Below, piece after piece: positions 10,387 to 41,300 of a stretch of DNA of 64,000 nucleotides (its first letter is position 1; each line of letters opens with the position of its first letter). Both the position numbers and the translations under genes were made by a program. The stretch comes from Deltaproteobacteria bacterium (GTDB taxonomy: Bacteria; Myxococcota_A; UBA9042; PHBI01). Below the pieces are notes generated by a model. The model saw only the letters and a program-made list of their open reading frames with translations. It was not told the DNA's origin and ran no database searches. The stretch lies in the NCBI GenBank assembly GCA_020632715.1, contig JACKFA010000007.1, positions 14,462-78,461 on the forward strand, given 5' to 3'.

Positions 10387-10416
10387 CCGTAGGGGCGGCC
10401 CTCGTGGCCGCCCGCT
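10387..10416. repeat. Inverted copy of the REP-like hairpin element (CGTAGGGGCGGCCCTCGTGGCCGCC)
   Basis: Reverse complement of the motif at 9968..9995, and of the array at 45901..46230. Confidence 0.6.
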
Positions 10417-10422
10417 GGCCGC

Positions 10423-19964: not shown

Positions 19965-20153
19965 AGGAGCCTGTAGCGCATTAGGGCTTCGAGCGGATTC
20001 GAGGCGTTCTCGGAGCGGATCGGCGAGGCGACGCGAAGCGTCGCCGGTTCCAAAACCCGAGGCGAACCAGCAGGTTCGCCGCAGTGGTTTTGGAACGCCG
20101 AGACGCCCGAGAACGCCCGAAGACGCCGAAGCATCTATGCGCTACAGGCTCCT
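19965..20153. mobile_element. 189-bp MITE-like element, copy 1, with perfect 17-bp terminal inverted repeats AGGAGCCTGTAGCGCAT / ATGCGCTACAGGCTCCT
   Basis: Near-identical to 23998..24186. There is an internal palindrome (GGTTCCAAAACC...GGTTTTGGAACG). Its terminal CTAG supplies the TAG stop of the UbiA gene. Confidence 0.7.
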
Positions 20154-21051
20154 AGAGGAACACGTTGGCGACGAGGCCGGCGCGGGCCCAGAGGGCGGTG
20201 CCGACGAGGAAGATCGCGAGGAGTGCCGTGCCGAGGTGCGTCAGCAGGATGCAGTCGCGGGTCGTGAGGCCGCGGCGGAGGCGCGGGCGGTAGAAGGCGA
20301 GCTGGATCCCGGGGGCGAGGAGCATCAGGAGCTCGCGGAGGCCGACGGCGCCGGTGAGGAAGGCGGCGAGGAGCACCACGGCCGAGGTCGCGAGGAGGGC
20401 GTCGATGATCTGGCGCGCGCGCTCGGGGCCGTGGACGACGGGGTAGGTGGGGACGTTGGCGAGGCGGTCGCCGTCGAGGTCGCGGAGGTCGTAGAGGATC
20501 TCGTAGGTGATCTCGAAGGCGACGAAGAAGACCGCGAGCCAGGCGACGGCGGCGGGGCCGCCGGGGTAGACGAGGCGCCAGTCGGCGGCGACGAGCGGGT
20601 AGATGAAGACGGTCAGGACGAAGAGGACCGCCGACATGAAGTTCTTGAAGAAGTACAGGTCCTTGAAGCGCCGTAGCCCGCTCGGGGTGGGGACGAGGCG
20701 CCAGCTGTAGCCCATGCCGATGAGCTGGACGACGACGCGCCAGGGGGTGAGGGCGGGCAGGAGCGCGACGGTGACGGCGAAGGAGCCGACGAAGACGGCG
20801 ACCCACGCGACGAGCACGGCGCGCTGGGCGCGGGCGACGCGCTCGGTGCCGCGGATCCCGTTGGCGAGGTCCTCCTTCAGGTCGGTGACGCGGTTCAGGA
20901 GGTTGATGAGGAGCCAGTCGACGCCGCCGATGAGGGCGACCGCCCACGGGTAGACCCCCGTGAGGACCCAGCCGAAGACGACGGCGGCGGTCATCGCGAT
21001 GAGGATGATGTGGATCCGCAGGATGGAGGCGGCGTCGGCGAGCCAGGACAT
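20152..21051 (-). CDS. UbiA-family aromatic prenyltransferase (membrane)
   Basis: Start MSWLADAASIL at 21051. Eight or nine TM segments and Asp-rich motifs (..NRVTDLKEDLANG.., ..YDLRDLDGD..). The upstream 114 codons of the tracked ORF are rejected. Confidence 0.75.
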   Translation of the reverse strand: MSWLADAASILRIHIILIAMTAAVVFGWVLTGVYPWAVALIGGVDWLLINLLNRVTDLKEDLANGIRGTERVARAQRAVLVAWVAVFVGSFAVTVALLPALTPWRVVVQLIGMGYSWRLVPTPSGLRRFKDLYFFKNFMSAVLFVLTVFIYPLVAADWRLVYPGGPAAVAWLAVFFVAFEITYEILYDLRDLDGDRLANVPTYPVVHGPERARQIIDALLATSAVVLLAAFLTGAVGLRELLMLLAPGIQLAFYRPRLRRGLTTRDCILLTHLGTALLAIFLVGTALWARAGLVANVFL

Positions 21052-24009: not shown

Positions 24010-24186
24010 CGCATTAGGGCTTCGAGCGGATTCGAGGCGTTCTCGGAGCGGATCGGCGAGGCGACGCGAAGCGGCGTCGGTTCCAAAACCCGAGGCGAAC
24101 CAGCAGGTTCGCCGCAGCGGTTTTGGAACGCCGAGACGCCCGAGAACGCCCGAAGACAGCGAAGCATCTATGCGCTACAGGCTCCT
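23998..24186. mobile_element. 189-bp MITE-like element, copy 2, inserted within a coding region
   Basis: Same 17-bp TIRs as copy 1 and about 98% identical over its whole length. Confidence 0.7.
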
Positions 24187-25036
24187 AGCGACGACCCCGG
24201 GCAGTGCGCCTCGGGGGTCTGCTACGCGGGCCTCTGCGGCGCCACCTGAGTGTCCCGACGACGCCGGGTGCGACGGCCTCCTCTGCCAACCGAAGGGCCT
24301 CGGCGGCGCCGCGTGCGACGAGCCGCGCGAGTGCCTCTCCAACATGTGCGAGGCCGGCCTCTGCACCGGCTGCGCGGCCGACGCCGACTGCGACGACGGC
24401 GAGCCCTGCACCGACGACCGCTGCGACGACGCCGTCTGCGTGCAGGTCCCGAACACCGCCGCCTGCGACGACGGCGACGCCTGCACCTTCGCCGACGCCT
24501 GCGCCGGCGGCGCTTGCGCCGGCACCGCGGTCGTCTGCCAGGACGACCCCGGCCCCTGCGGCGCGAACCGCGCCTGCAACGGCACCGCCGCCTGCACCGT
24601 CACCTACCCGGGGAGCGGCACGGGCTGCAACGACGGCAACGCCTGCACCGTCGGCGACCACTGCAACGGCGGCGGCGCCTGCGTCGGCGGGGGGGCCGCG
24701 ACCAACGGCACCGGCTGCGGCGCGGCCGCCTCCCGGCGCTGCTGCGGCGGCACGTGCGTCGACACGAGCGCGGACGCCAGCAACTGCGGCGGCTGCGGGA
24801 TCGTCTGCGGCGCGGGCCTCGCCTGCGAGGATCCCGGCGTCACCACCGGCTGCGGCACCGCCGACTCCTCCGGGCGCTGCCGCTGCACCGGCGCGAACGC
24901 GCAGTGCCCGGGGTCGCAGATCTGCCGCACCTTCACCCCGTGGAACAACCGCTGCGCCCCCGTCGACGCCGGCAGCTGCGCCCCCGGGCAGCACGTCGTC
25001 GCGCTCTCGAGCTGCCCCGACCTCTGCAGCTATTGA
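24170..25036 (+). CDS. Cysteine-rich repeat protein (Myxococcus-type C-x-DGD-x-C-T-x-D-x-C-x-GG-x-C repeats); its first ATG lies inside the MITE
   Basis: At least nine Cys-rich units (..CDDGDACTFADACAGGACAGT.. and similar). No signal peptide from this start. Likely the 3' part of the disrupted gene, possibly still expressed. Confidence 0.45.
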   Translation: MRYRLLATTPGSAPRGSATRASAAPPECPDDAGCDGLLCQPKGLGGAACDEPRECLSNMCEAGLCTGCAADADCDDGEPCTDDRCDDAVCVQVPNTAACDDGDACTFADACAGGACAGTAVVCQDDPGPCGANRACNGTAACTVTYPGSGTGCNDGNACTVGDHCNGGGACVGGGAATNGTGCGAAASRRCCGGTCVDTSADASNCGGCGIVCGAGLACEDPGVTTGCGTADSSGRCRCTGANAQCPGSQICRTFTPWNNRCAPVDAGSCAPGQHVVALSSCPDLCSY

Positions 25037-25103: not shown

Positions 25104-27335
25104 ATGCCCGCCCCCCGGAAGCCGCTGCTCGCCACGCTCAAGGACGCCCTCTCCGTCCCTGAGCGGCGCCTCAAGGCGTGGCTCGTCATCGCGCTCATCG
25201 CCGGCGCCTACCTCTTCGGCGTGGGCGTCCGCCTCGCCTGGGTCCCGAAGGTCGAGGCCAACCCGCAGGCCGTCTGGGCCGGCCACGTCACGCTCACCGC
25301 GACCGACGGCTACTTCTTCGCGAGCGCCGTGCAGCACGCCGTCGAGGGCGGCGAGCCCACGAACATGCGCCTCCCGCCGTGGGAGAAGCACGCGATCACC
25401 ACGATCGCCACGGCCGCCGTGCACGTCCTCGACGCCGCCCCCCTCGAGGTCACCTTCTACCTCCCGGTCTTCCTCGCGCCGCTCCTCGCCGTGCCCCTCG
25501 TGCTCCTCGGGCGCCTCGTCGGCGCGCCCCTCTTCGGCTTCGCCGCCGGCGCCTTCGCGGTCGTCGGGCTCAGCTACTTCAACCGCTCCCTGCCCGGCTA
25601 CTTCGACACCGACATGGTGTCCGTCACCTTCCCGATGGTGCTCGTCTGGCTCCTCGCGAGCGCCGTCATGGCGCGCGACGGCGACGGCGGCCCCGACGAG
25701 CCCCGCGCCCTCCGCTACGCCATCGCCGCCGCCTTCTGGACCGCCTCGGGCACCTTCTTCTACAACCGCATCGCCCCGGTGCTCCTCGCCTTCTCCTTCG
25801 GCTTCATCCTCTACGCCCTCATCTTCCACCGCCGCGAGCGCTGGGTGTGGGTCGCGGCGCCGCTGCTCCTCGTCGCCGTCTGGGGGATCCCCTGGTGGGC
25901 CCGCGTCCTCGCCCTCGTCCCGCTCGCCGTCGTCGCGACGCGCGTCCGCCTCTCGCGCAACGCCCTCATCGCCGCCGGCGCCGTCGCGCTCGTCGTCTTC
26001 TTCCTGACGAGCCCCGGCCTCGACCTCGTGATGAACCCGATCGAGCGCTTCTCCGACCGCGCCGGGAGCACCGGCGAGGGCGGCATCAAGTTCGTCTCCA
26101 CGACCTCCCTCATCCGCGAGACCGCGAAGCTCCCCTTCGACCGCCTCGCCCAGCGCTTCGCCGGCTCGACCCTCGCCTTCGTCATGGGCGTCGTCGGCTA
26201 CCTCCTCCTCTGCGCCCGCCACCGCGCCTTCCTGCTCGCGCTGCCCGTCGTCGCCCTCGGCGCCTTCAGCCTCGACGGCGGGCTCCGCTTCACCATCTTC
26301 GGCGTGCCCATCGCCGCCCTCGGCGCCACCTGGCTCATCTTCCTCGCGCTCGGCTGGCTCGTCCGCGCCGCGCGCGCCCTCGCCTCGCGCCGCGCCGTCC
26401 TCGCGATGCACGTCGTGGGCGTCCTCGCCGCCGTCCCGCTCATCGCGCCGAACGTCGAGGCCGACCTCGCGCGCACCCCCGCGACCGCGCTCCCGGCCGG
26501 CGAGGCCGAGCTCATGCGCGATCTCCGCGCCATCCGGAAGCCCGGCGACTACGCCGTCGCCTGGTGGGACTACGGCTACCCGCTCTGGTACTTCGCGGGC
26601 GTGAACACCCTCGTCGACGGCAGCAAGCACGCCGCCGACACGCTCGCCGTCTCGCAGATCCTCTTCTCCGACTCCCAGCTCCAGGCCGCGAACCTCGCGC
26701 GCGCCGCGGTCGAGCTCTACGCGACGACCAAGCTCCCGAACGCCCCCGCGCTCCCGCGCCTGTTCCGGCGGGCGCGGAAGGAGGGCAAGACCCCGCGGCA
26801 GCTCCTCGCCGAGATGGCGACGCCGGCCTACGAGCCGCCGCCGAAGACGCGCGAGATCTACCTCTACGTGCCGCAGCGGATCCTGCCGCTCATGATCTCC
26901 ATCGAGAAGTTCTCGCAGGACGCGCGCCGCCCCGAGGGCGTCGCCGAGCCGCACCAGCCCTTCTCCGTGTTCTCACCGGCCGTCAAGGAGCTCCCGGGCG
27001 GCGTCGTCGAGCTCCAGGGCGGCTATCGCGTCGATCCGCAGCGCGGCGTCGTCCTGCGCACGCGCAACGGCCGCGAGGAGAGCATGCCCATCGCGACCCT
27101 CTGGGAGGTGGGCGTCAACAAGTCCTTCGAGCCCATCTCGCGCGCGCTCAAGACCTACGCCCCGACCGGCGCGCACGTGCTCCTCATGCGCTCCTACGGC
27201 TCGGCGCTCATCCTCGACGAGGCGCTCCTGCGCTCGAACCTCGTGCAGATGTACCTCTTCGGCAACGTCGACAAGGACCTCTTCGAGCCCGTCCTCCGCA
27301 CCGCCTTCGGCACCGTCTACCGCGTCATCCGATGA
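25104..27335 (+). CDS. pglB: PglB/STT3-type oligosaccharyltransferase (N-glycosylation OST, 743 aa)
   Basis: 13 predicted TM helices plus a C-terminal periplasmic domain. The hallmark WWDYGYPLWYFAGVNTLVDGSKH compares with C. lari PglB WWDYGYP...TLVDGGKH. N-terminal ..TATDGYFFAS.. gives the Asp, ..YFDTDMV.. the DxD and ..TSLIRE.. the TIxE-like motif. The upstream 300 codons of tracked ORF 24204.. are rejected. Confidence 0.8.
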   Translation: MPAPRKPLLATLKDALSVPERRLKAWLVIALIAGAYLFGVGVRLAWVPKVEANPQAVWAGHVTLTATDGYFFASAVQHAVEGGEPTNMRLPPWEKHAITTIATAAVHVLDAAPLEVTFYLPVFLAPLLAVPLVLLGRLVGAPLFGFAAGAFAVVGLSYFNRSLPGYFDTDMVSVTFPMVLVWLLASAVMARDGDGGPDEPRALRYAIAAAFWTASGTFFYNRIAPVLLAFSFGFILYALIFHRRERWVWVAAPLLLVAVWGIPWWARVLALVPLAVVATRVRLSRNALIAAGAVALVVFFLTSPGLDLVMNPIERFSDRAGSTGEGGIKFVSTTSLIRETAKLPFDRLAQRFAGSTLAFVMGVVGYLLLCARHRAFLLALPVVALGAFSLDGGLRFTIFGVPIAALGATWLIFLALGWLVRAARALASRRAVLAMHVVGVLAAVPLIAPNVEADLARTPATALPAGEAELMRDLRAIRKPGDYAVAWWDYGYPLWYFAGVNTLVDGSKHAADTLAVSQILFSDSQLQAANLARAAVELYATTKLPNAPALPRLFRRARKEGKTPRQLLAEMATPAYEPPPKTREIYLYVPQRILPLMISIEKFSQDARRPEGVAEPHQPFSVFSPAVKELPGGVVELQGGYRVDPQRGVVLRTRNGREESMPIATLWEVGVNKSFEPISRALKTYAPTGAHVLLMRSYGSALILDEALLRSNLVQMYLFGNVDKDLFEPVLRTAFGTVYRVIR

Positions 27336-28449
27336 GCCGGTAGAGGGCCGCCGTCCGCGCCGCGATGGGGCCCCACGCGAGCGCCCCGCGGGCGAAGGCG
27401 CGCCCCCGCTCCGCGCAGGCGGCGCGCGCGTCGTCGTCGGTCAGGAGGGCGACGATCGCGTCGGCGAGGGCGTCCGCGTCCCCCGGCGGGGCGAGGAGGC
27501 CGCAGCCGGCAGCGCGCACGAGCTCCCCGAGCCCGCCCACGTCGCTCGCCACGATGGCCCGCCCGCGGGTCGCCGCGAGGACGGCCACACCGCTCTGCGA
27601 GATCTCACGGTACGGCAGCACGACGAGGCGCGCCGCGTCGAAGAGCGAGGGCAGGGCGCCGTCGGGGACGAAGCGCTCGTCGAGCTCGGCGCGGCCTTCG
27701 CGCGCGAGGGCCCGGACGCGCGCGAGCACCTCGCCGACGTCGCCGCGCGGCCGGCCGACCACGCGGAGGTGCACGTCGGGGACCGCGCGCCGCACGCGCG
27801 GGAGCGCGTCGAGCAGCACGTCGAGGCCCTTGTAGGGGCCGATGAAGCCGAACGCGAGGAGGTCTGTCGGCGGCGCGGGCGGCGCCGGGTGCGCGTCGAG
27901 GTAGGCGAAGTTCCCGTGCGGGAGGCGGTGGACCCGCTCGGCGGGGACGCCGAAGGTGGTCGTGAGCGCGCCCGCTGTCGCCGCGTCGTGGGCGACGATC
28001 GCGCGCGGCGCGCGGTAGATGGCGCGCCAGAGCGCCGTCTGCGCCGGGGTCGGCGGGGCGTCGTGGGGCGTCGCGTTGTGCGCCGTGTAGACGAGCGGGC
28101 GCAGGCGCGCGAGCGCGTGGAGCGGGGCGACGTCGACCTCGGGGACCGGCAGCCACTGCACGTGGACGACGTCGTGACGCCGCGCGAGGCCGAGGGCCCG
28201 CGCCATGCCGGCCGCGTGCTCGGCGAGGCGCGCCACGCGGGCGGCGCGGCCGAAGAGGCCGGCGGCGCGCGAGGCGGCGAGCGTGCGCCGGTAGAACGAT
28301 GGGTCTACCGTGTAGGACGGGGCCGGCAGGCCGGCGAGCTCGCGCGCCCAGGCGCCGCAGGTCAAGAGCGTCACGCGCGCGCCGTCGGCCGTGAGCGCCT
28401 CGCAGAGCGGGTGCACGTAGCCGAAGGCGGACCCCGATGGGTTGAGCAT
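27325..28449 (-). CDS. Glycosyltransferase family 4 (GT-B, group 1)
   Basis: ..AFGFIGPYKGLDVLLDA.. and ..GVAVLAATRGRAIVASDVGGLGELV.. with the EX7E-like region. Convergent with pglB, overlapping it by 11 nt. Confidence 0.75.
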   Translation of the reverse strand: MLNPSGSAFGYVHPLCEALTADGARVTLLTCGAWARELAGLPAPSYTVDPSFYRRTLAASRAAGLFGRAARVARLAEHAAGMARALGLARRHDVVHVQWLPVPEVDVAPLHALARLRPLVYTAHNATPHDAPPTPAQTALWRAIYRAPRAIVAHDAATAGALTTTFGVPAERVHRLPHGNFAYLDAHPAPPAPPTDLLAFGFIGPYKGLDVLLDALPRVRRAVPDVHLRVVGRPRGDVGEVLARVRALAREGRAELDERFVPDGALPSLFDAARLVVLPYREISQSGVAVLAATRGRAIVASDVGGLGELVRAAGCGLLAPPGDADALADAIVALLTDDDARAACAERGRAFARGALAWGPIAARTAALYRLIG

Positions 28450-28537
28450 GAGGACGTCCAGGGGGCCTCCGGGCGCGGCGGCGGCGCGGGCGTTTGGTTT
28501 TGTCGCGCCGCGCGAAATGCTTCACTCTCCACGGCGC

Positions 28538-29569
28538 ATGATACACGACGAGCCCGCCGGCGACGCCCCCGGCGCCGCCTGGCCGGCGGTGAGCGTGGTC
28601 GTGCCGATGCGGAACGAGGCGGGCTTCGCGCGGCGCTGCCTCGACGCGCTGCGCGGGCAGGACTACGCAGGCGAGCTCGAGATCGTCTGCGTCGACGGCC
28701 TGTCGGACGACGGCACCCGCGACGCGCTCGCCGCCATCGCGGCCGAGGATCCGCGCGTCCGCGTGGTCGACAACCCGGCGCGCACGACGCCCGCGGCGAT
28801 GAACGTCGGGATCCGCGCGGCGCGGCACGCGCTCGTCCTGCGCATGGACGGGCACGCCCTCGCCGACCCAGACTACGTGCGCGAGAGCGTCGCGGCCATG
28901 CGCGAGACGGGGGCCGATCAGGTCGGCGGGCGCTGGCTCATCGAGGGGGAGGGCCTCGTCGCGGGCGCCATCGCCGCCGCGATGGGCTCGCCGTTCGCCG
29001 TCGGCACGGCGCGCTGGCGCTCGAGCGACGCGCCGGGCTGGGTCGACACCGTGCCCTACGGGCTCTGGCGGCGGGAGCGGCTGCTCGCGCTCGGCGGCTT
29101 CGACGAGCGGCTCGTGCGGAACCAGGACTACGAGCTCGCGTACCGGCTGCGCGCCGCGGGGGGGCGGATCTGGTACACGCCGGCCGTGCGCTCGCGCTAC
29201 TACGCGCGCCGCGACCTGCGCGCGCTGTGGCGCCAGTACTGGCAGTACGGCGTCTGGAAGGCGCGCGTCGTGAAGCTCCACCCGCGGTCGCTCGAGCCGC
29301 GGCATCTCGTGGCGCCGCTCTTCGTCGCGGGCGTCGTGCTCGGGCTCCCGCTCGCGCTGCTCCTCGGCGGGGTCGTGGCGTGGCTCTACCTCGGCGCGCT
29401 CGCGGTCTACGGGGCGCTCGCGGGGTTCGCGGCGGCGCGGGTCGCGGCGCGCACGCGGTGGCGCTACGTGTGGCTCCTGCCGGCGATCTTCGCGCTCCTG
29501 CACGTCGCGTGGGGGGCCGGCTTCTGGGTCGGGCTCGGGAGCCGCGGCGGCCTTGCGGAGGAGGGCTGA
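28538..29569 (+). CDS. Glycosyltransferase family 2 with a C-terminal membrane anchor
   Basis: ..VSVVVPMRNEAGF.. and ..LRMDGHALADPDY.. (DxD/DxH region), then about three TM helices. Start is placed at the ATG at 28538; the upstream TTG or ATG starts overlap the divergent GT4 start. Confidence 0.7.
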   Translation: MIHDEPAGDAPGAAWPAVSVVVPMRNEAGFARRCLDALRGQDYAGELEIVCVDGLSDDGTRDALAAIAAEDPRVRVVDNPARTTPAAMNVGIRAARHALVLRMDGHALADPDYVRESVAAMRETGADQVGGRWLIEGEGLVAGAIAAAMGSPFAVGTARWRSSDAPGWVDTVPYGLWRRERLLALGGFDERLVRNQDYELAYRLRAAGGRIWYTPAVRSRYYARRDLRALWRQYWQYGVWKARVVKLHPRSLEPRHLVAPLFVAGVVLGLPLALLLGGVVAWLYLGALAVYGALAGFAAARVAARTRWRYVWLLPAIFALLHVAWGAGFWVGLGSRGGLAEEG

Positions 29570-29601
29570 CGGGGGGAGACTCGCGGCGGAGGTGTTCCGA
29601 T

Positions 29602-31260
29602 ATGAGGCTCCGCGCGACCGTCGTCCTGCCCCTCGTCCTCGTGCTCGCCGCGTGCGGCAAGAGCGCGCCTGCGCCTGCGCCTGACGCCGCGGCGCCTCCG
29701 CCCACGGAGACGCAGGCCCCGCCGACGTCGGCGCCCCCCGAGGCGGCGGCGGACGCGGCGCCTTCGGAGTCGCCGGAGGACGCGGGGGCGGCGACGACCG
29801 CGGCGGCAGACGAGGACGCGGCGGCGACCGCGGCGGCGAATGAGGACGCGACGGCGGCGGCGCCGAAGGGGGACGCGATGCTCTGGGCGGGGGCGGTCAC
29901 GGCGCCAGGCGGGATGGAGCTCGGGATCGAGGTCGCGCTCGCGAAGAACGCGGACGGGGCGTGGTCGGGGACCATCAGCATCCCGATGCAGAACGTGAAG
30001 GACCACGTCCTCGACGGGGTCGCGGCGGACGACCACGCGCTCGCCTTCACGCTGAAGCTGCCGGGCATGCCCGAGGCGGCCTGGGCGAAGTTCACGGCGA
30101 CGCTCGCCGAGGACGGGAAGACCGCCGCCGGCACGCTCCACCAGGGCGGGCTCGATCTGCCGCTGAAGCTCGAGCGCACGACGGCGGAGGCGCTGGCCGC
30201 GAGCGCGCCGAAGCGCCCGCAGATGCCGGCGCCGCCGTTCCCGTACACGGTGCGCGAGGTGTCCTTCAAGCACCCGACCACGGGGGCGACGCTGGCCGGC
30301 ACGATCACGGCGCCCGCGGACGACGCGAAGCACGCCGCCGCCGTGCTGATCACGGGCTCGGGCCTCCAGGACCGCGACGAGACCATCTTCGGGCACAAGC
30401 CGTTCCTCGTGCTGGCCGACTGGCTGACGCGCCACGGGGTCGTGGTGCTGCGCGTCGACGACCGCGGCGTGGGCGGCTCGACCGGAGACGCGGAGTCGGC
30501 GACCGTGCTCGACAACGCGACGGACGTCGAGGCGGCCTTCCGCTTCCTGCGCGAGCAGCCCGAGGTGGACCCGGCGAAGGTCGGGCTCATCGGCCACTCG
30601 GAGGGCGGGATCATCGCGCCGGTCGTGGCGTCGCGCGTGCCCGAGGTGGCGTTCGTCGTGGCGCTCGCGGGGACCGGGATGACCGGCGAGGAGCTGATCC
30701 CGCTCCAGTACGCGCTCATGGCGAAGGCGGAGGGGGTCGCGGACACGGCCGTCGCGGCGACGCTCGCGCTCGAGAAGGCGGCCATCGCGGCGGCGGCGAA
30801 GGGGGAGCCGCGCGACGTCGTGAAGACGGCGGTGAAGGCGCTGGTCGCGGCGCAGTCGCCGGAGATCGCCGGGGTGTCGAAGGAGGAGCTCGAGAGCGAC
30901 GCGTTCCTCGAACGCGCGGTCGATCAGCTGCTCGGCGTCTGGTTCCTCTCGTTCCTGCGCCTCGACCCGAAGGCGTACTGGAAGCAGGTGAAGTGCCCGG
31001 TGCTCGCGGTCGGCGGGAGCCTCGACATGCAGGTGCCGGCCGAGGAGAACCTGGCGCTCATCGCGGCCGCCGTGAAGGAGGGCGGCAACGAGGACGTGAC
31101 CACGATGACGCTGCCGTCGTTGAACCACCTCTTCCAGACGGCGACGACGGGCGGGCTCTCGGAGTACGCGACCATCGAGGAGACCTTCGCGCCGACGGCG
31201 CTCGAGCTCCTGAGCACGTGGATCGCGGGGAAGACGGGGGGCGCCGCGCCGGAGAAGTAG
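29602..31260 (+). CDS. Alpha/beta-hydrolase fold lipoprotein (S9/dienelactone-hydrolase-like)
   Basis: MRLRATVVLPLVLVLAACG lipobox and an A/P/D-rich linker. ..VGLIGHSEGGIIAP.. GxSxG nucleophile elbow. The upstream 600 codons of the tracked ORF are rejected. Confidence 0.75.
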   Translation: MRLRATVVLPLVLVLAACGKSAPAPAPDAAAPPPTETQAPPTSAPPEAAADAAPSESPEDAGAATTAAADEDAAATAAANEDATAAAPKGDAMLWAGAVTAPGGMELGIEVALAKNADGAWSGTISIPMQNVKDHVLDGVAADDHALAFTLKLPGMPEAAWAKFTATLAEDGKTAAGTLHQGGLDLPLKLERTTAEALAASAPKRPQMPAPPFPYTVREVSFKHPTTGATLAGTITAPADDAKHAAAVLITGSGLQDRDETIFGHKPFLVLADWLTRHGVVVLRVDDRGVGGSTGDAESATVLDNATDVEAAFRFLREQPEVDPAKVGLIGHSEGGIIAPVVASRVPEVAFVVALAGTGMTGEELIPLQYALMAKAEGVADTAVAATLALEKAAIAAAAKGEPRDVVKTAVKALVAAQSPEIAGVSKEELESDAFLERAVDQLLGVWFLSFLRLDPKAYWKQVKCPVLAVGGSLDMQVPAEENLALIAAAVKEGGNEDVTTMTLPSLNHLFQTATTGGLSEYATIEETFAPTALELLSTWIAGKTGGAAPEK

Positions 31261-31284
31261 GCGGGGGCGAGGTCTCCGGCGGGG

Positions 31285-32811
31285 TCAGGCCCCGCGGCCG
31301 CCGAGCACGACGCCGACGGTGCGGAGCAGCACGCGCGCGTCGAAGGTCAGCGAGGCGTGCTTGATGTAGTAGACGTCGTACTCGAGCTTGGCGATGGCGT
31401 CGTCGACGGACGAGCCGTAGGGGAAGCAGACCTGCGCCCAGCCGGTGACGCCCGGCTTCACGAGGTGGCGGAGGTCGTAGTAGGGGATGAGCTGCTCGAG
31501 CTCGGCGGTGAACTCGGGGCGCTCGGGGCGGGGCCCGACGAGGGACATCTGCCCGACGAGGACGTTCCAGAGCTGCGGGAGCTCGTCGAGGCGGGTGCGG
31601 CGCATGAAGCGGCCGAGCGGGGTCACGCGGGGGTCGTTGGCGCTCGCCCAGCGCGCGGCGCCGTCGGACTCGGCGTCGGCGCGCATGGTGCGGAGCTTCA
31701 GGAGGGTGAAGGGGCGCTTCCAGCGGCCGACGCGGACCTGGCGGTAGAGCACGGGGCCGCGGCTCGTGGTCTTGACGAGGACGGCGAGGACGAGGAGCAC
31801 GGGGGCGGCGAGGAGGAGGCCGACGAGGGCGCCGCCGATGTCGATGGCGCGCTTGGCGCTGGCGTACCAGAGGGAGGCGCCGCCGTGGAGCTGCTCGTCG
31901 TGGAGGAACCAGCCGTGGTCGTCGGCGGAGAGGGGGATGCGCTCCTGGACGTCCTCGATGAGCTGGCTCGGGGTGAGGACGGGGACGTTCTTGATCCGGT
32001 AGTGGATGAGGTCGGCGAGGGTCTCGCGGGGGAGGGCGTCGGCGGGGGTGGCGAGGACGACGGCGCGGACGGCCCCCTGCATCTGGGCGTCGAGGGCGGA
32101 CAGCGGGAGGGGGCCGCCGGCGCCGGCGGTGGGGGCCGGGGTGTCGGCGGCGAGGGCGGGGTCGAACCAGACGACGCCGTGTTGTTGGCCGCCGGTGGCG
32201 AGGCGCTCGGCGAGGGCGGCGGCGGCGGGTTGGCTGCCGATGACGAGGACGCGGGCGCGGGCCTCGGCGCGGCGGAGGGCCCAGGCGAGGGCGGCGCGGG
32301 AGAGGACGACCCAGAGGGCGAGGAGGAGGGCGAGGCCGACCATGCCTTGGGAGGCGGGGGGAGAGAGGGCGCGGATGGCGGCCTTCTTGGAGAGGTACTT
32401 GAGGATGATCCAGGCGACGGCGAGGCCGCCGGCGGTGCCGAGGGCGGTGACGCGGGAGACGCGGCCGCGCTCGGCGCGGTAGCCGCCGGCGAGGAAGGTG
32501 CCGAGGAGGGCGCCGGCGACGAGGAGCCAGCTGACGGGGCCGGAGCTCGGGACGTCCCAGGCGAGGAAGGGGAGGCCGATGACGTAGAGCCAGGCGACGA
32601 GGGCGTCGGCGAGCAAGAGGGCGAGGGCGACGCTGCGGCGCGAGCGGGCGCCCCGGTTCGGCACGACGACCTTGCGAGCGGCGCGCTCGAGCTCGATACG
32701 CCGGTCGGTGCGCGCGCGGTCGGAGACGAGGGCGGCGCGGCCGACCGGCGCGTGAGGCGCGGTCCGTGGTGACTCCTGTGACGTGGCGACCAGCCCTCCG
32801 TCGAGCGGCAC
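31285..32811 (-). CDS. WbaP/ExoY-type polyprenyl-phosphate hexose-1-phosphate transferase (initiating phosphoglycosyltransferase)
   Basis: C-terminal bacterial sugar transferase domain (..[15 protein letters not shown].., ..LLKLRTMR.., ..[22 protein letters not shown]..). The start is uncertain. The GTG at 32811 is chosen because the 5' 88 codons of the tracked ORF run through palindromic repeats. Confidence 0.65.
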
Positions 32812-33240: not shown

Positions 33241-33613
33241 GGCGGGCCGGAGGTCGCGGGGGCGGAGCCCCTGCGACCGCAGGGCTGTCCCCAGGCCGTC
33301 CACGCCCCCGTCATCGCCGGCATCTCCACGGCGCGCACGGGGCTCCGCGGCCACCCCAAAGATTCTAGAATCACGTCACTTTCTGCTTGACGGGTTCTGG
33401 GCGAGCACACCTCGCCAAAGGCCCGGACGACGGCCAGGAATCGCCAGGTTGGCGCCTCCCAGCCCGTCCACCGCGCTGATCAGGGCCAAGCCACCGCGAG
33501 AGGTGGACGAGGTGCCGTTCGTTGAACCTGGAGCGTCCTGGAGGGGCTCGGCCGGCCCTGAAAGCCCCGTGCTATAAGGGAAATCAAGCCGAGACGCCAC
33601 GGAGCACGGACCC

Positions 33614-34700
33614 ATGAACCCCTCGCACGCCCAGTCACGACGCCCCCGACGAAGCCCGGAGCCACGCAGCCCCGAGCGCTCCTCGCCGAGCTCGCGCGCC
33701 ACGCCGCTTCGTCGTTCGAGAAGACGGCCGACGTCCTGCGCCTCCTCGGCGAGGTCGACCGCACCGGCGCCTGGTCCGAGAAGCCCTATGGCTCCCTCTT
33801 CGCGTACTGCCTCGGTGAGCTGAACTGGTCCGAGGGAGAGGCCGCGAAGAAGATCCAGGCCGCGCGGGCGGCGCGGCGCTTCCCGATCCTGCTCCAGCGC
33901 GTCCGCGCAGGGCGGCTGCACCTCGCCGGCGTCGTGCTCCTCGCGGCGAAGCTCAACGACGACAACGCGCGGGAGCTCATCGACGCCGCCTGCGGCAAGT
34001 CGAAGCGCGACGTCGAGGCGCTCCTCGCGGCGCGGTTCCCGCGGCCGGACGTGGCGCCGTCGATCCGCAGGCTGCCTGCGCCATCGCGCCGGGTGGAGGC
34101 GGCGACGCCGTCGCTGCCGATGTCATCGACGCCTTCCGTCGTGCCGGCGGTGCCTGCGCGCCGGGAAGACCTCGGCTCACGCTCTCTCCGTGGGCGGCCG
34201 CCGCGCCGACGTCGCGCCGCTCTCCGCCGAGCGCCACAAGCTGACCGTCACCATCAGCAGCGCCACGCGCGACCGCCTCGCCCGGCTCGCCGCGCTCACG
34301 AGCCACCGGAGCGCCGAGGCGCGCTCCGTCGAGGGCTGCTCGACGCCGCCCTCGAGCTCCTCGAGGCGAAGCTCGTCAAGGAGCGCTTCGGCGTCGGGGC
34401 GAAGCCGCGGAAGGTCGAGGCCCCGAAGAAGTCGGCGCGAGCGTTCTCGAAGGCCGACAGGCGCGCGATCGTGGCGCGCGACGGGCTCCAGTGCTCGCAC
34501 GTCGACGCCGCGACCGGCGTCCGGTGCAGCGAGACGCGCTGGCTGACGCTCGACCACGTGGAGCCCTGGGCTCACGGCGGGGAGAGCGTGGCGGAGAATG
34601 GGCGGGTGCTTTGCAACGCCCACAACCAGGCTGCGGCGCGCCGGGTGCTCGGAGAAGAGCTCGTCCGGAGCCGGGTCGCGGAGCGGCGCGGAGGCGACGT
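33614..34700 (+). pseudogene. DUF222-type HNH endonuclease gene (REP13E12-like) carrying at least two frameshifts
   Basis: Frame 1 has ..LLGEVDRTGAWSEKPYGSLFAYCLGELNWSEGEAAKK.. and the HNH core ..RDGLQCSHVDAATGVRCSETRWLTLDHVEPWAHGGESVAENGRVLCNAHN. The middle segment (..RHKLTVTISSATRDRLARLAALTS..) reads in another frame. Confidence 0.55.
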
Positions 34701-34794
34701 CGGCGGTGAGGGCGGGGTGCTACCGGCGAAGGGGCGCTCCCGCGCCGTGGAGATGCCGGCGATGCCGGGGGCGTGGACGGCCTGTGGACGGCCG

Positions 34795-34940
34795 CTGCGC
34801 GGCCCGCCCACGAGTCCGCCCACACCTTTGGACAACTCGTGACTCCGCGCCCCGCGGGCGCGGAGCCCCGAGTTGCCCACATCGCCTTGGAAAACCTCGG
34901 ACCCGGCCGGCCTGCGGCCAGCCGAACCCGGGTTTCCACA
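34795..34940. repeat. Right arm of the inverted repeat pair, partner of 33081..33240
   Basis: See the left arm. Confidence 0.55.
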
Positions 34941-34986
34941 TCTCCACGGCGCCTGCTGCGGCTGCTTTTCCTCGGGGAGGTCTCCG

Positions 34987-35164
34987 GACAGTCCCCGGGG
35001 ACTGTTGGTCTGGGGTGACCGGGGACTTCGTGTCGGCCGTGGCCCATCCGCACCCGTGGGGAACAGTCCCCGGGGACTGTTGGTCTGGGGTGACCGGGGA
35101 CTTCGTGCCGGCCGTGGCCCATCTCAGTCCGCACGCGAGGGGGGCGACAGTCCCCGGGGACTGT
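34987..35164. promoter_or_regulatory. Three further copies of the ACAGTCCCCGGGGACTGT palindrome; the first two sit in a 66-bp tandem repeat
   Basis: Sites at 34987..35005, 35063..35080 and 35146..35164. The last lies 60 bp upstream of the AI-2E transporter ATG. Confidence 0.45.
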
Positions 35165-35224
35165 TCGCCCGGGGGGGCTTCGTGCCCAATTGTGGGCGGG
35201 GGATTCCTCGGGCATGGTCTCTTC

Positions 35225-36301
35225 ATGGTTGAGCCCGAGAAACCGCGTACGCCGACGCAGACCTACTTCCTCGGCTTCATCGCCTTCGTGGTGCTCGCGG
35301 CCGTCCTGTATTACGCGCGGCCGGTGGTGCTGCCCGTCGTGGTGGCCTTGTTCCTCGCCGTGCTCGTGCGGCCGCTGCATCGGCGCCTGAAGCGCGTGGT
35401 GCCGAGCTCCGTCAGCCTGGCCCTCGTCAGCCTCGCCGTGGGGCTCTTGCTCGTCGCCATCCCGGCCGCCTTCGCCGCCAACATCGACGCCATCCTCGCC
35501 AAGCTCCCCGACTACGCCCCTCGCATCCACGCCATCGTCGAGGACGTCCACGACTTCGCCCTCCGCCTCGGCGTCGACATCGCCCAGCTCGACCTCGACC
35601 CCGTCGCCTCCCTCAAGGACTTCGGCCTCGACGCGCTCACGAGCGGCGTCACCTTCTTCGGCAACGTCGTCCTCATCCTCTTCACCATGCTCTTCATCCT
35701 CTCCGAGGCCGAGATCTTCCGCGACAAGCTCGCCGTCGCCTTCAACCCCTCCAACGAGGCGCGCCTCATCGCCTCCGTCGTCTCCGTCCGCGCCCTCATC
35801 ACGCAGTACGTCGCCACGAAGACCCTCATCGCCTTCCTCTCCGGGCTCGCCGCCGGCGCCGTCACGCTCGCCCTCGGCGTGGACTTCCCCTTCGTCTGGG
35901 GCGTCCTCACCTTCATGCTCTACTACATCCCCAACGTCGGCTCGATGCTGGCCGTGATCCCGCCCTTCCTGCTCGCGATCATCCAGTTCGACGGCCCGAC
36001 CCGCGCGCTCGTGCTCCTCGCCGTCCTCATCGTCGTCTTCAACCTCGTCGGCAACGTGCTCGAGCCGCGCCTCATGGGGCGCACCCTCTCCCTCTCGCCC
36101 CTCATCGTCTTCGTGTCCCTCATCTTCTGGGGCTGGTTCTGGGGCTTCGTCGGCGTCGTCCTCGCCGTCCCCCTCACCGTCGTCACGAAGATCCTCTGCG
36201 AGCACATCGAGGTGCTCCGCCCCGTCGCCGTGCTCATGAGCAACAGCGTCGACGACCACCGCGGCGGACCACCCCCGCCGGCCGCCCCGCCGCGCCGCTG
36301 A
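35225..36301 (+). CDS. AI-2E family (PerM/UPF0118) transporter
   Basis: Eight TM helices with the family's characteristic C-terminal ..FWGWFWGFVGVVLAVPLT.. region. The upstream 209 codons of the tracked ORF are rejected. Confidence 0.75.
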   Translation: MVEPEKPRTPTQTYFLGFIAFVVLAAVLYYARPVVLPVVVALFLAVLVRPLHRRLKRVVPSSVSLALVSLAVGLLLVAIPAAFAANIDAILAKLPDYAPRIHAIVEDVHDFALRLGVDIAQLDLDPVASLKDFGLDALTSGVTFFGNVVLILFTMLFILSEAEIFRDKLAVAFNPSNEARLIASVVSVRALITQYVATKTLIAFLSGLAAGAVTLALGVDFPFVWGVLTFMLYYIPNVGSMLAVIPPFLLAIIQFDGPTRALVLLAVLIVVFNLVGNVLEPRLMGRTLSLSPLIVFVSLIFWGWFWGFVGVVLAVPLTVVTKILCEHIEVLRPVAVLMSNSVDDHRGGPPPPAAPPRR

Positions 36302-36977: not shown

Positions 36978-38204
36978 TCAGAGGAACTGGTTCAGGTAGT
37001 CGCACACCCAGTGGCCCGGGCAGCACACCTGGTCGCCCGCGACGCCGTTGCCGATGTTCCCCGGGCTCACGCAGAGCCGGTAGCCCTGCGACGGGTAGTA
37101 GTAGGCCCAGAAGAAGCACATCTCGGCGTTCGCGCTCTCACCGAAGCGCACCGTGTGGTTCGACGTGTTCTCCCACGTGCACCGGTAGCGGAAGCCCTGC
37201 CCCTCGCTGAACGTGAGCGGCGGGTCGTAGGTCGACACGGGCGGCTCCTCCCAGTCGAACTTCACGCCCTCGTCGGGGTAGACGGAGGTGCCCTCGTCCT
37301 CGGCGTCGGTCGCGTAGGAGACCTCGACGTTCTTGCCGTACGCGTGCTCGTGGCCCGTCAGGGCGAAGACCTTGCTCCCGGCCGGCACGTCGAGGAAGCG
37401 CCACGGCGTCGTGAGCGTCTGCCCGGCCGGGATCTCGAAGTCGGGGTTGCCGTAGAAGAGGAGGTTCGCCTCGTCGGTCACGCGGTCGGCGGCGATGGCG
37501 TCGAAGTGGATGTCGCCGTGGGCCGTGATGCTCTCGGGGAAGTAGTTCAGGTAGTGCGCCTCGATGCGGATCATCTGGTGCGGCGCGAACTTGAAGGCGA
37601 CCCCCGGCGGGAACGTGAGCGTCTCCTCGCGGATCTGCGTGATCATGAGCGGGTACGTCGTGCCCTTCAGCGTCGAGACGAACGGGTCGCAGTTGAACGG
37701 CGTCGTCCGCTCCTCGGTCTCGTCCGACACGTAGATGATCATGTGGTGCGAGCCCTTGGCGAGCTCGGTGCGGATCTGCGAGACCCAGAGGTCGTCCTCG
37801 TTGTCGAGGCGGCGCACCACGCACTTCGTGACCTCGCGCCCCGGGTCCATCTGCCAGTCGCCGATGAACGTCGACGAGGTGCCCACGATCGGCGGCGGCT
37901 CGAGCGGCGTCGTGTCGACCGGCGTCGCCGTGTCCTCGGGCGTCGTCGTGGTCGCGTCCTCCGGGCTCGTCGTGGTCGCGTCCTCCGGCGGGGCCGTGGT
38001 CGTCGCGTCCTCGGGGGCCGTCGTCGTGCCGGTGGCGTCGTCCCCCGGGGTCGTCGTCGTCGCGACGTCGTCGCCGGTCGCGTCGTCGCCGCCGACCGCG
38101 TCGACCGCGCCGGTCGCGCCGTCTTGGGTGCCGCTCCCGCCGCTGTCGCAAGCGCCGAAGGAGACCAGGGACAAGACCATGAGCGGGGCCAGAACACGTG
38201 TCAT
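36978..38204 (-). CDS. Secreted lipoprotein with a PHM/DBH-like copper type II ascorbate-dependent monooxygenase fold
   Basis: Lipobox ..LVSFGAC and a T/D/P-rich linker. ..KGSHHMIIYVSDE.. gives the CuH HHM motif. ..LTGHEHAYGKN.. (HxH) and ..NAEMCFFWAYYYP.. give the CuM site with its Met. Confidence 0.55.
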   Translation of the reverse strand: MTRVLAPLMVLSLVSFGACDSGGSGTQDGATGAVDAVGGDDATGDDVATTTTPGDDATGTTTAPEDATTTAPPEDATTTSPEDATTTTPEDTATPVDTTPLEPPPIVGTSSTFIGDWQMDPGREVTKCVVRRLDNEDDLWVSQIRTELAKGSHHMIIYVSDETEERTTPFNCDPFVSTLKGTTYPLMITQIREETLTFPPGVAFKFAPHQMIRIEAHYLNYFPESITAHGDIHFDAIAADRVTDEANLLFYGNPDFEIPAGQTLTTPWRFLDVPAGSKVFALTGHEHAYGKNVEVSYATDAEDEGTSVYPDEGVKFDWEEPPVSTYDPPLTFSEGQGFRYRCTWENTSNHTVRFGESANAEMCFFWAYYYPSQGYRLCVSPGNIGNGVAGDQVCCPGHWVCDYLNQFL

Positions 38205-38331
38205 GGCCGGCACTTTGGCATAGGCCAAACCCCCGCTTCAAGCGCCAAAGCGGCGCCAGCGGTTCTCGCTTCGAAACTCCGGACGAGGCATAGTAGCGCG
38301 GCCCCTGCCCCGCCGAAGGAGTCCGTGCCCG

Positions 38332-41300
38332 ATGTGTCGCCGCGCTCGCCTGGCCGTCTTCGCGCCCCTCGCCCTGCTCTCGCTCCTGCTCGTCCCGGCC
38401 TGCGCCGACGACGCCACCACCGGCGGCGTGGACGTCGCCGACGGGATCCTCGAGCCCGACACCCTCGTCGTCGACACGAGCGTCCCCGCGGACACGATCG
38501 TCGTCATCGACACGAGCGCCGACACCGCGGGGCCGGTCGACACGGGCGGCGGGAGCGACGTCGAGGGCGGCTTCGGCGCGCCCTGCCAGGGCAACGTCGA
38601 CTGCCTCGACGGCTTCTGCGTCGAGGGGGAGGAGGGCTTCTTCTGCACGAAGATCTGCGAGGAGAGCTGCCCCGACGGCATGGACTGCAAGTCGGTCCTC
38701 ACGGCGGGCGCCGACCCGGTCTTCCTGTGCCTGCCGCGCCTCGCGAAGGTGTGCGTGCCCTGCAAGAGCGACTTCCAGTGCACGGGCGGCGCGTGCCTCG
38801 AGATCGACGGCGCGGGGCAGTGCGCGATCAGCTGCGAGGGCGCCGGCGACTGCCCGACCGGCTACGACTGCGCCGCCGACCCGGCGGGCGTCCGGAGCGG
38901 CGACTTCTGCCAGCCGCGCTCCGGGAGCTGCGACTGCACGCCGGAGCTCGACGGCGCGCAGCGCACGTGCGTCGTAGCGAACGACGTCGGCACCTGCTAC
39001 GGCGTCGAGACGTGCGACGCCGAGACGGGCTGGGGCGGCTGCAACGCGCGCACGCCGGCCGAGGACCTGTGCGACGGGCTCGACAACGACTGCAACGGCC
39101 TCGTCGACGACGGCGTCGAGGACGGCGGCGCCTGCAACAAGACGATCGCGGGCGTCGGCACCTGTCACGGCGTCGAGGTCTGCCTCGGGCCGCAGGGGCT
39201 CGTCTGCAGCGCGCCGACCCCGGAGGCGGAGACCTGCGACTTCAAGGACAACGACTGCGATGGCGGCGTCGACGAGGACTTCAAGGACGCCTCGGGCGAG
39301 TGGACGACGACCGCCAACTGCGGCACGTGCGGCAACGACTGCAGCACCAAGATCCCGCACGGCGTGGGCCGCTGCGAGGCCGTCGGGCAGGGGTCGCCGG
39401 TGTGCGTGGTCGACCACTGCGACGCCGACTACGTCGCCATCAACCAGTTCCAGTGCTCGCTCCCGCCCGACGTCTCGTGCCAGCCGTGCGCCGGCGACGA
39501 CGACTGCTTCGGCGGCTCCTGCGTGGACCTCGACGGGCAGCGCGTGTGCGTCTCGCCGTGCGGCGGGGCGGCGCGCTCCTGCGGCGACGGCTACGCGTGT
39601 CAGGCGGTCGGGAGCGGCGGGGAGCGCTGCCTGCCGGTGACGGGCTCGTGCGTGTGCAACGCGACGACGGACGGGCAGGCGCGGGCGTGCGTGCGGACGA
39701 ACGCGGCGGGGACGTGCTTCGGGCAGGAGGTCTGCGACGCGATGTCCGGCTGGAGCGGGTGCAACGCGCGGGAGCCGGCGGCCGAGGTGTGCGACGGGGT
39801 CGACAACGACTGCAACGGCGTCGCGGACGACGGCGTCGTGCCGCCGACGGAGCCGTGCGAGAACGCGGTCGCGGGCGTCGGGACCTGCACGGGGACGTGG
39901 TTCTGCGCGAGCAATGGCGCGGGCGGGGTGGCCTGGACCTGCAACGCGGCGACGCCGGAGCCCGAGGTGTGCGACTTCCGCGACAACGACTGCGACGGGC
40001 AGGTCGACGAGGGCTACAAGGACCAGGCGACGGGCGTCTACGGCGCCGACGACGCCTGCGGCTCGTGCGGGGTCTCGTGCGACACGGCCGTGCCGCACGC
40101 GAGCGCGGGGTGCCTCGTGGGCGCGGGCGTCGCGCGCTGCGAGGTGCTCGAGTGCGACCCGGGCTACTACCAGGCGGGGCCGCTCACGTGCCTGCCGGTG
40201 ACGGAGGACCTGTGCACGCCGTGCGCGACGGACGCGCAGTGCCCGACGCCGGGGGACCGCTGCCTCGACCTCGACGGCGGGCGCTTCTGCGGGCGCGACT
40301 GCGGCGCGACGAACCTGCACGGGACGGCGGCGGGCGTGTGCCCGAGCGGGTTCGCGTGCCAGGCCGTCCTCGGCGGGGCGGACCAGTGCGTGCCGGCGAC
40401 GGGGAGCTGCAGCTGCCTCGCGGGGGACGTGGGGGAGCAGCGGACGTGCATCCGGTCGAATGCGCTCGGGACGTGCTACGGGCAGGAGACGTGCGCGGCG
40501 GGCGGGTGGTCGAGCTGCACCGTGACGGCGCCGGTCGCGGAGGTGTGCAACGGCAGGGACGACGACTGCAACAGCGCGATCGACGACGTGGCCGGCCGCG
40601 GGCAGGCGTGCAGCATCACGAACGCGAACGGGACGTGCCCGGGGGTGAAGGACTGCCCGGCGAGCGGGGCGGCGCTCGTGTGCGTCGGGAAGACGCCGGC
40701 CGCGGAGAGCTGCAACTACGCGGACGACGACTGCAACGGCGTCGCCGACGACCCGTGGGCGGCGACGCTGTTCCAGTCGTGCTCGAAGGGGCAGGGGGTG
40801 TGTCAGCGGTTCGGCTTCATGGCGTGCAAGGCCGACGGGAGCGGCGTCGAGTGCAACGCGCAGCCGGGGCCGCAGGGGGAGGAGATCTGCGACGGCCTCG
40901 ACAACGACTGCGACGGGGAGACCGACGAGGGCCCGTGGGATGAGAAGGGGCAGCCGTGCACGGCGGGGCTCGGCGTGTGCCAGGTGACGGGCGTCAAGGT
41001 GTGCAGCCCCGACGGGGCGACGCTCGTGTGCTCGGCGACGCCGCCGGCGCCTGGCACGAGCGACCCGTGCGATGGGCTCGACAACGACTGCAACGGCGTC
41101 GTCGACGACGCGTTCGCCGCGCAGAAGGGGGCGGTCTGCTCGAACGGGCAGGGCGTGTGCAAGGCGTTCGGCAACCTCGTGTGCGGGAACGGGGGCGCGA
41201 GCTTGGTCTGCAACGCCACGGAGGGCACGGGGACGCCCGAGGTGTGCGATCTCGTCGACAACGACTGCGACGGCGCGACGGACAACGGCTTCCAGGTCGG

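Follow-up and report, generated by a model that had tools for sequence, protein, structure and literature searches.

A candidate locus for PglB-dependent N-linked protein glycosylation in an uncultured high-GC Myxococcota-like bacterium

We examined a 64,000-nucleotide stretch of contig JACKFA010000007.1 (hereafter the window), in which a gene for a putative oligosaccharyltransferase (OST) lies among genes predicted to assemble a lipid-linked glycan. The locus probably encodes PglB-dependent N-linked protein glycosylation in an uncultured high-GC Myxococcota-like bacterium. Five genes form the group. The first encodes a PglB/STT3-family single-subunit N-oligosaccharyltransferase of 743 aa (25104-27335, plus strand). 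It is followed by a convergent family 4 glycosyltransferase (GT4) of 374 aa (27325-28449, minus strand), which overlaps the OST gene by 11 bp, and by a family 2 glycosyltransferase (GT2) on the plus strand that is divergent from the GT4 and ends at 29569. The GT2 may start at 28442, 28517 or 28538, which gives 343 to 375 aa depending on the start; the NCBI call is 28538, with 343 aa. A lipoprotein alpha/beta-hydrolase of 552 aa (29602-31260, plus strand) begins 32 bp 3' of the GT2 and is convergent with a large phosphoglycosyltransferase (PGT) of the Bac_transf family, approximately 500 aa long (31285 to about 32811, minus strand; start at 32790, 32811 or 32847). Pfam E-values across the five genes ranged from 1e-12 to 1e-64. 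Because the GC content of the window is approximately 74%, plain lists of open reading frames (ORFs) were crowded with spurious frames, and true frames were chosen by the GC content of third codon positions (GC3), which gave one clear frame per gene. These frames exactly reproduced the positions and orientations given to the five genes in a first-pass annotation of the window.

Profile searches placed the 743-aa protein inside the STT3/PglB family. It scored above the cut-offs of PF21436 (E = 1.6e-29; 103.5 bits, cut-off 23) and PF02516 (E = 3.2e-20; 73.5 bits, cut-off 24.5), and it matched the NCBIfam model ProtGlycPglB over profile positions 13 to 711 of 713. In a phmmer comparison, residues 28-741 were aligned with residues 18-710 of Campylobacter lari PglB (5ogl; E = 2.8e-81), and the best solved relatives were three C. 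lari PglB structures followed by the periplasmic domain of C. jejuni PglB. Hydropathy analysis gave at least 11 hydrophobic segments; in the predicted layout, residues 1-456 contain approximately 13 transmembrane helices and residues 457-743 make up a periplasmic domain. The end-to-end alignment with C. lari PglB and the Pfam scores agree with the first-pass annotation, which had proposed a full-length PglB/STT3-type enzyme.

The predicted fold pointed to the same family. An AlphaFold2 model of the OST was built on 16 homologues, with a mean predicted local distance difference test score of 85.5 and a predicted template modelling (TM) score of 0.85. When the model was compared with solved structures by Foldseek, it superposed on 5ogl with TM scores of 0.86 (query) and 0.91 (target), and the top ranks were 5ogl, 6gxc and 3rce (0.83-0.86 by query and 0.90-0.91 by target). 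TM scores were approximately 0.5 for archaeal AglB and eukaryotic STT3 and 0.33-0.41 for AftA, DPY19 and ArnT. C. lari PglB was thus the nearest solved structure by both sequence and fold. In precomputed annotation, the C-terminal Pfam model PF18527 is assigned to Campylobacterota-type relatives and not to the subclade of this OST; even so, the Foldseek superposition shows that the C-terminal domain keeps its fold. Two other identities were considered and rejected. An ArnT-like GT-C enzyme was ruled out by TM scores of 0.33-0.34 against 0.86-0.91 for PglB, and an O-antigen ligase was ruled out because none was present in the best 50 of 416 Foldseek matches (E <= 10).

The catalytic hallmarks that had been noticed at first reading (WWDYGYP...TLVDGSKH, a DxD motif, a TIxE-like motif and DGY) were all legible in the translation as TDGY, GYFDTDM, LIRE, WWDYGYP and TLVDGSKH, and residue equivalences were read off the sequence alignment with C. 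lari PglB (ClPglB). The catalytic acid of external loop 1 (EL1), D56 in ClPglB, corresponds to D68; R147 corresponds to R161, and the DxD of EL2, D154/D156, corresponds to D168/D170. The TIxE segment of EL5 (T316-I-M-E319), which supplies the glutamate, is L336-I-R-E339. R331, the arginine that reads the acidic -2 residue of the D/E-x-N-x-S/T sequon, corresponds to R351, and R375 corresponds to R395. The WWDYGY motif at 463-468, which binds the +2 Ser/Thr, is found at 487-492, and D481-G-G-K484-H485 is D505-G-S-K508-H509. The acidic residues and the equivalents of R375 and WWDYG therefore all align. Two of the mapped positions varied in the 16-sequence alignment, Y490 (also F) and K508 (conservation of at least 90%); the others were invariant. 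R351 and the W, W, D and G of WWDYG were invariant both in this alignment and in a 10-sequence alignment of the subclade, and the core catalytic set was also invariant in the subclade alignment and in the orthologue of the related genome L105. The DGSK of the window OST is a conservative variant of the DGGK motif, with G at the variant position in the L105 orthologue. On the strength of alignment and structural model, the protein is a genuine STT3/PglB-family oligosaccharyltransferase with predicted activity. The computational tests that could have contradicted the first-pass annotation were all carried out, and none did so.

Close relatives of this OST were rare. Among 1.84 billion cluster representatives, 263 relatives were found at E <= 1e-30, and only about six clusters reached at least 39% identity. 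The GTDB representative set contained relatives at 32% identity or less only, and a scan of JGI metagenomes returned almost solely low-GC relatives at approximately 30% identity and contributed no close ones. In a crude neighbour-joining tree, the close relatives formed one clade with DNA of 67-75% GC. The sister of this clade consisted of L001, a high-GC "Deltaproteobacteria" metagenome-assembled genome (MAG), and P0041, followed by OSTs of Verrucomicrobiota, and the clade stood apart from the low-GC cluster that holds C. lari PglB. The subclade alignment of about 10 sequences contained 80 invariant columns. The OST belongs to a rare, deep, high-GC PglB subclade that is labelled at NCBI only as hypothetical protein, the window OST being "MAG: hypothetical protein KC635_04620".

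The two glycosyltransferases next to the OST were identified as the first-pass annotation had described them, one convergent with the OST gene and the other divergent from the first. The GT4 matched PF13692, PF00534 and PF13439, has a GT-B fold, and contains no transmembrane segment. Among solved structures it is best matched by PimA-type mannosyltransferases (E = 1e-12) and only weakly by PglA (E = 1.6e-6), and it is presumed to be a cytoplasmic extender of the lipid-linked glycan. The GT2 matched PF00535 (E = 3.5e-23) and PF13641 and has two or more hydrophobic C-terminal segments. Many of its homologues (43-61% identity) bear the JGI automatic name "succinoglycan biosynthesis protein ExoA"; these names, together with a GT-A domain followed by C-terminal transmembrane helices, suggest that the GT2 is ExoA-like.

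The PGT matched PF02397 (E = 1.2e-64) and is presumed to be the initiator that loads sugar-1-phosphate onto undecaprenyl phosphate. It had been called WbaP-type, and its large polytopic architecture bears this out, whereas the narrower assignment does not hold: its score against the WbaP model TIGR03022 (178.4 bits) was below the cut-off of 403, the WcaJ model was also missed, and only the generic exopolysaccharide (EPS) model TIGR03025 (EPS_sugtrans) was passed (334.8 bits, cut-off 295.55). Its catalytic domain matched both WbaP (E = 5.6e-33) and PglC (E = 1.4e-28), with homology confined to that domain. The fifth gene is, as annotated, a lipoprotein alpha/beta-hydrolase. The protein begins with MRLRATVVLPLVLVLAAC and has the lipobox VLAAC; its further parts are a linker rich in Ala, Pro, Asp and Glu, an N-terminal domain, and a hydrolase domain that contains GHSEG. 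It matched PF02129, PF00326, PF12146 and other alpha/beta-hydrolase models and, in part, the NCBIfam model of esterase EstD; its solved relatives are esterases. The hydrolase and GT2 genes are probably co-transcribed. For this esterase-like periplasmic lipoprotein, no role in N-glycosylation pathways is known to us.

The association of the OST with glycan-assembly genes, which the first-pass annotation had read from this one locus, recurred in related genomes. L105 showed 83% nucleotide identity to the window and kept the order OST-GT4-GT2-hydrolase-PGT; its positions 1-5926 align with 25600-31586 of the window. Amino acid identities to L105 were 72% for the OST, 82% for the GT4 (in the same position), 85% for the GT2, 69% for the hydrolase and approximately 90-94% for the PGT. 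In L105 and L106, the hydrolase (approximately 70%) lies directly 3' of the GT2, and the PGT is 90-94% identical. For the four genes compared between the window and L105, the ratios of nonsynonymous to synonymous substitution rates (dN/dS) were 0.47 (OST), 0.26 (GT4), 0.23 (GT2) and 0.51 (hydrolase), and all four are under purifying selection. By this measure, the OST and hydrolase evolve approximately twofold faster than the GT4 and GT2. The pattern extended to more distant relatives. In L102 and L103, whose OSTs are 37-39% identical to the window OST, a large Bac_transf PGT (51-55% identity) immediately adjoins the OST. In L021, with an OST approximately 40% identical, a GT2 (55%) and a hydrolase (46%, 7.5 kb from the OST) are present within 2 to 8 kb of the OST. 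Given the same gene order in L105 and the PGT, GT2 or hydrolase beside the OSTs of relatives, the grouping is not due to chance.

Two of these partners were also found next to pglB in a different lineage. Among 71 pglB loci with enough flanking sequence, a Bac_transf PGT lay just downstream of pglB in 38, and a homologue of the window GT2 lay just upstream in 13 (27-38% identity; E down to 1e-45). These 13 low-GC loci are L039 (8946-9959), L025, L028, L032, L043, L047, L048, L058, L076, L079, L080, L085 and L101, and many low-GC pgl-type operons are ordered GT2-pglB-PGT. The operon of L039 consists of a GT4, a truncated glycosyltransferase-like ORF, a second GT4, an AsnB-like gene, an acetyltransferase, the GT2 (337 aa, with C-terminal transmembrane helices), PglB, and PglC-like, PglE-like and PglF-like genes. 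The position of an ExoA-like GT2 upstream of pglB in the low-GC loci suggests an old partnership between GT2 and PglB. In two distant lineages, then, pglB is repeatedly accompanied by the PGT and the GT2.

For the glycan and its sugars, the order of assembly, the translocation step, the acceptors, the sequon preference, the activity and any role of the hydrolase, we infer the following scheme. The large Bac_transf PGT would prime undecaprenyl phosphate with sugar-1-phosphate at the cytoplasmic face of the inner membrane, and the ExoA-like GT2 and the GT4 would lengthen it to a short undecaprenyl-diphosphate-linked oligosaccharide; both steps are supported by family assignment and the conserved neighbourhood. 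A flippase or ABC (ATP-binding cassette) exporter encoded elsewhere would then carry the glycan to the periplasmic face. There, the OST would transfer it en bloc to exported proteins, at the side-chain amide of the Asn of N-x-S/T sequons; D68, D168/D170 and E339 would hold the divalent cation that the enzyme uses, and WWD would bind the +2 Ser/Thr. Homology, fold and residue conservation support this last step.

Several results weigh against this interpretation. The OST missed the equivalog cut-off of ProtGlycPglB by a wide gap (294.8 bits against 1300) and is only approximately 25-28% identical to C. lari PglB; by these profile and alignment values, it is a distant homologue and not an equivalog of Campylobacter PglB. 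Its MI motif is I-L-P-L (593-596) in place of M-L-R-I (569-572) in ClPglB, a conservative change, the subclade consensus being M-x-x-L. The five genes are divided among at least four transcription units rather than joined in one operon, and the OSTs of L013 and L019, which belong to the same subclade, have no glycan genes nearby. Sequons N-x-S/T and D/E-x-N-x-S/T were counted in 43 window proteins and compared with shuffled sequences; no enrichment was found in the neighbouring proteins, whose counts were at chance level and too few to inform. These counts lend no support to the first-pass suggestion that exported proteins encoded nearby are the substrates. Characterised large EPS-type PGTs mostly load hexose-1-phosphate. 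The window PGT is of this large EPS type, unlike what would be expected from the preference of C. jejuni PglB for a 2-acetamido sugar at the reducing end, to which exceptions are known (PMC6494827). Finally, neither a flippase or exporter (Wzx, Wzm/Wzt, PglK) nor nucleotide-sugar genes were found in the 64-kb window: Pfam searches of nearly all called ORFs gave no ABC transporter domain, and tblastn with queries from related loci gave no homologue of Wzx, Wzm, Wzt, epimerase, PglE or PglF. The locus had been described as a minimal parts list for N-glycosylation; the OST, PGT, GT2 and GT4 are indeed present, but the list lacks these parts.

The translocation step of this genome is presumably encoded outside the window. 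In relatives, exporter genes were found beside the OST. L012 has a Wzx-like gene; in L021, Wzm and Wzt, the latter with a Wzt_C domain, lie 3' of the OST in the same operon (5266-7385). In L103, Wzm lies 3' of the OST (4787-5853) and the contig ends soon after, and in L001, Wzt and Wzm adjoin a GT4-OST pair (6332-8471). We are not aware of any report of a PglB-type OST that is natively paired with Wzm/Wzt. A bolder version of the proposal, tentative and on the whole doubtful, is that this deep high-GC PglB clade uses a donor begun by a hexose-type PGT and an ExoA-like GT2 and, in relatives, delivered by Wzm/Wzt, such that its members would be natural OSTs for glycans, perhaps long ones, without a 2-acetamido reducing end, and that the lipoprotein hydrolase would be a new accessory factor.

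Other explanations of the locus were weighed against N-linked protein glycosylation. It is rather unlikely that the OST is real while its neighbours, the PGT, GT2 and GT4, serve the synthesis of an exopolysaccharide, capsule or O-antigen unrelated to it and adjoin it only through shared gene-order ancestry. Such a cluster would fit the PGT, which passes only the generic EPS model, the wide distribution of ExoA-like GT2s in phyla in which no PglB was observed, the division of the five genes among several transcription units, and the bare OSTs of L013 and L019. It would also fit L109, in which orthologues of the PGT (67%), GT2 (68%) and GT4 (56%, directly 3' of the GT2) lie within approximately 12 kb (210-12219) with no OST within 10 kb of them. 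On the other hand, Pfam searches of nearly all called ORFs in the window gave none of the genes that an EPS or O-antigen cluster would require (a polymerase, a chain-length regulator, an outer-membrane exporter and a ligase), and PGT-OST adjacency was found again in L102 and L103 despite the low identity of their OSTs. GT2-OST adjacency in L021 and in the 13 low-GC loci also speaks against an unrelated cluster; since those 13 loci are of a distant lineage, shared gene-order ancestry does not explain it. In SRR5579849, the run from which L109 comes, the subclade OST P0005 was found on a separate contig without glycan genes. The OST and glycan assembly may be unlinked in some genomes of this group.

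C. jejuni PglB releases free oligosaccharide besides glycosylating protein. The window OST might likewise mainly hydrolyse lipid-linked oligosaccharide and free periplasmic oligosaccharide, for example for osmoprotection, with protein glycosylation minor or absent. The proteome is Asn-poor and high-GC and sequons are rare: the window contains two extended ones in all, of which one is in a 1601-aa lipoprotein, and no acceptor protein was identified. These points are in keeping with hydrolysis, as is the behaviour of the C. jejuni enzyme. However, the peptide-binding elements are all conserved (WWD, R351 as the counterpart of R331, and the hydrophobic positions of the MI motif), and nothing would maintain them in an enzyme that only hydrolyses. 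We therefore give this explanation little weight and prefer transfer of the glycan to protein. Because retention of the R331-equivalent arginine does not predict the minus-two rule (PMC4894442), the presence of R351 does not allow the relaxed -2 preference of Desulfovibrio to be transferred to this OST.

Even less probable is a PglB-fold GT-C enzyme with a changed acceptor, either a different residue or a non-protein molecule. The deep branch separate from characterised PglBs, the variant DGSK and I-x-x-L motifs and the lack of a PF18527 match in the subclade are compatible with such a change; the WWDYG clamp for the +2 Ser/Thr and the D/D/E constellation that activates the Asn amide are unchanged, and the model matches PglB in its overall fold, periplasmic domain included (TM 0.91). 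Least probable of all is that the gene is what remains of an acquired pglB, now inactive or in decay, which the hypothetical-protein label, a dN/dS above those of the glycosyltransferases and the failed equivalog cut-off could suggest, but against which stand a full-length open frame in four assemblies, catalytic residues all intact in both the window OST and L105, a dN/dS below 1 although the extreme GC3 bias should depress dS, a codon composition that matches the host, and membership of a coherent subclade whose roughly 10 sequences share 80 invariant columns.

We compared the locus with known systems. Like Campylobacter PglB (3RCE, 5OGL, 6GXC), the window OST is a single-subunit enzyme of equal length and domain order, with equivalents of D56, R147, D154/D156, E319, R331, R375 and WWDYGY and with a variant (DGSK) of the DGGK-type motif, and in both cases the OST is clustered with a Bac_transf initiator and GT4/GT2 genes. 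The two differ in sequence (approximately 25-28% identity) and in the MI motif, which is I-x-x-L in the window OST. They also differ in gene content: the Campylobacter initiator is the small PglC, whereas the window has a large polytopic PGT and, by the Pfam and tblastn searches of the 64 kb, lacks the small PglC, the PglD/E/F-type genes for N,N'-diacetylbacillosamine (diNAcBac) and PglK of the C. jejuni-type pgl locus. In addition, the window genes are scattered on both strands, with the lipoprotein hydrolase as an extra conserved neighbour. The low-GC Campylobacterota-like vent pgl operons, such as that of L039, share with the window an ExoA-like GT2 and a Bac_transf PGT beside pglB. Unlike the window, they are compact, lie on one strand and carry a small PglC and PglE/PglF-like genes, and their OSTs are approximately 30% identical to the window OST and are placed by the crude tree on its second main branch. 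Functional PglB-type OSTs of the former "Deltaproteobacteria" are known from Desulfovibrio alaskensis, D. gigas and D. vulgaris (PMC4894442, PMC12229607). Because Desulfovibrio PglBs share 15-20% identity with C. jejuni PglB (PMC4894442), the window OST appears, on published figures, nearer to the Campylobacter type. The large PGTs WbaP and WcaJ have the same large architecture as the window PGT, and the WbaP catalytic domain is matched, but both of their model cut-offs are failed. Sinorhizobium meliloti ExoA gives its name to homologues of the window GT2. WbaP/WcaJ and ExoA serve polysaccharide pathways and not protein glycosylation.

Characterised cases of PglB-type N-glycosylation come mainly from Campylobacterota and a few Desulfovibrio, and PglB homologues have been reported in a few dozen species only; most of these are epsilonproteobacteria, and a few belong to Desulfovibrio, Geobacter and Aquificae (PMC4894442, PMC12229607). 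In the literature that we searched, nothing linked PglB or OST to myxobacteria or Myxococcota. If the locus is active, N-glycosylation of exported proteins would be shown to occur in one more major lineage, in which secreted disulfide-rich surface proteins abound, and a divergent OST would be added to the bacterial glycoengineering set, where acceptor-sequon range and reducing-end sugar tolerance are bottlenecks (PMC6494827). This would extend a known bacterial system to an uncultured high-GC lineage without a new mechanism, with a moderate bearing on the phyletic spread of bacterial N-glycosylation and on OST bioprospecting.

The source of the window was examined through its gene labels and composition. 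The 743-aa OST was called identically in three independent assemblies, including KC635_04620 (Myxococcales bacterium), and a "Deltaproteobacteria bacterium" MAG encodes HisD and GT2 proteins identical to those of the window. The nearest named relatives of HisD (67-72% identity) are from MAGs labelled Deltaproteobacteria, Myxococcota, Myxococcales and Bradymonadaceae. The description of the genome as myxobacterial-type is reasonable in view of these relatives, but it rests on the labels given to MAGs by their submitters. The GC3 of the OST (0.99) is like that of the neighbouring genes and no tRNA was found in the window, indicating a resident gene and not a recent import. An origin by mobile element or horizontal gene transfer was rejected, the window having neither tRNA nor compositional anomaly. 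Searches for matches to promoter or terminator consensus sequences in the window gave none.

Two genes upstream of the OST were examined. A Cys-rich repeat ORF of 288 aa (24170-25036, plus strand) stops 67 bp upstream of the OST. The called frame has no signal peptide or hydrophobic N-terminus and contains two N-G-T sites with no D/E at -2; in its second half, an ORF on the other strand (24604-25029) accounts for GC3 just as well. L021 and L013 likewise have Cys-rich repeat proteins upstream of their OSTs. Such proteins are common in the window, and this ORF may be next to the OST by chance. A UbiA-family prenyltransferase (PF01040; 299 aa; 20152-21051, minus strand) sits 3.7 kb upstream of the OST and gave only weak generic prenyltransferase matches in NCBIfam. 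Its orthologues (66-70% identity) divergently adjoin the OST in L018 (4163-5065) and L104 (45-947), the two closest relatives with upstream flank. It may be a conserved neighbour of the OST, through plain synteny or a link to the lipid carrier, and we do not claim it for the pathway.

Other genes of the window were also noted. Between the PGT and an AI-2E-family transporter (34598-36301), the GC3 frame of 33562-34842 (plus strand) switches several times with only a weak HNH match, and the gene here may have decayed or undergone a frameshift. Next to each other and divergent are the genes of two lipoproteins: one (36978-38213, minus strand) has a C-terminal domain of the copper type II monooxygenase family, and the other is the 1601-aa lipoprotein (38332-43137, plus strand), which carries repeated MopE-type metal-binding motifs. 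A VKOR-thioredoxin fusion (7278-8657, plus strand) fits periplasmic disulfide formation for the many Cys-rich exported proteins. At 56416-63489 (minus strand), a histidine operon comprises hisG, a hisC-like gene, hisB, hisH, hisA, a hisF/IE fusion and hisD, and is preceded by an ABC1/UbiB-type kinase.

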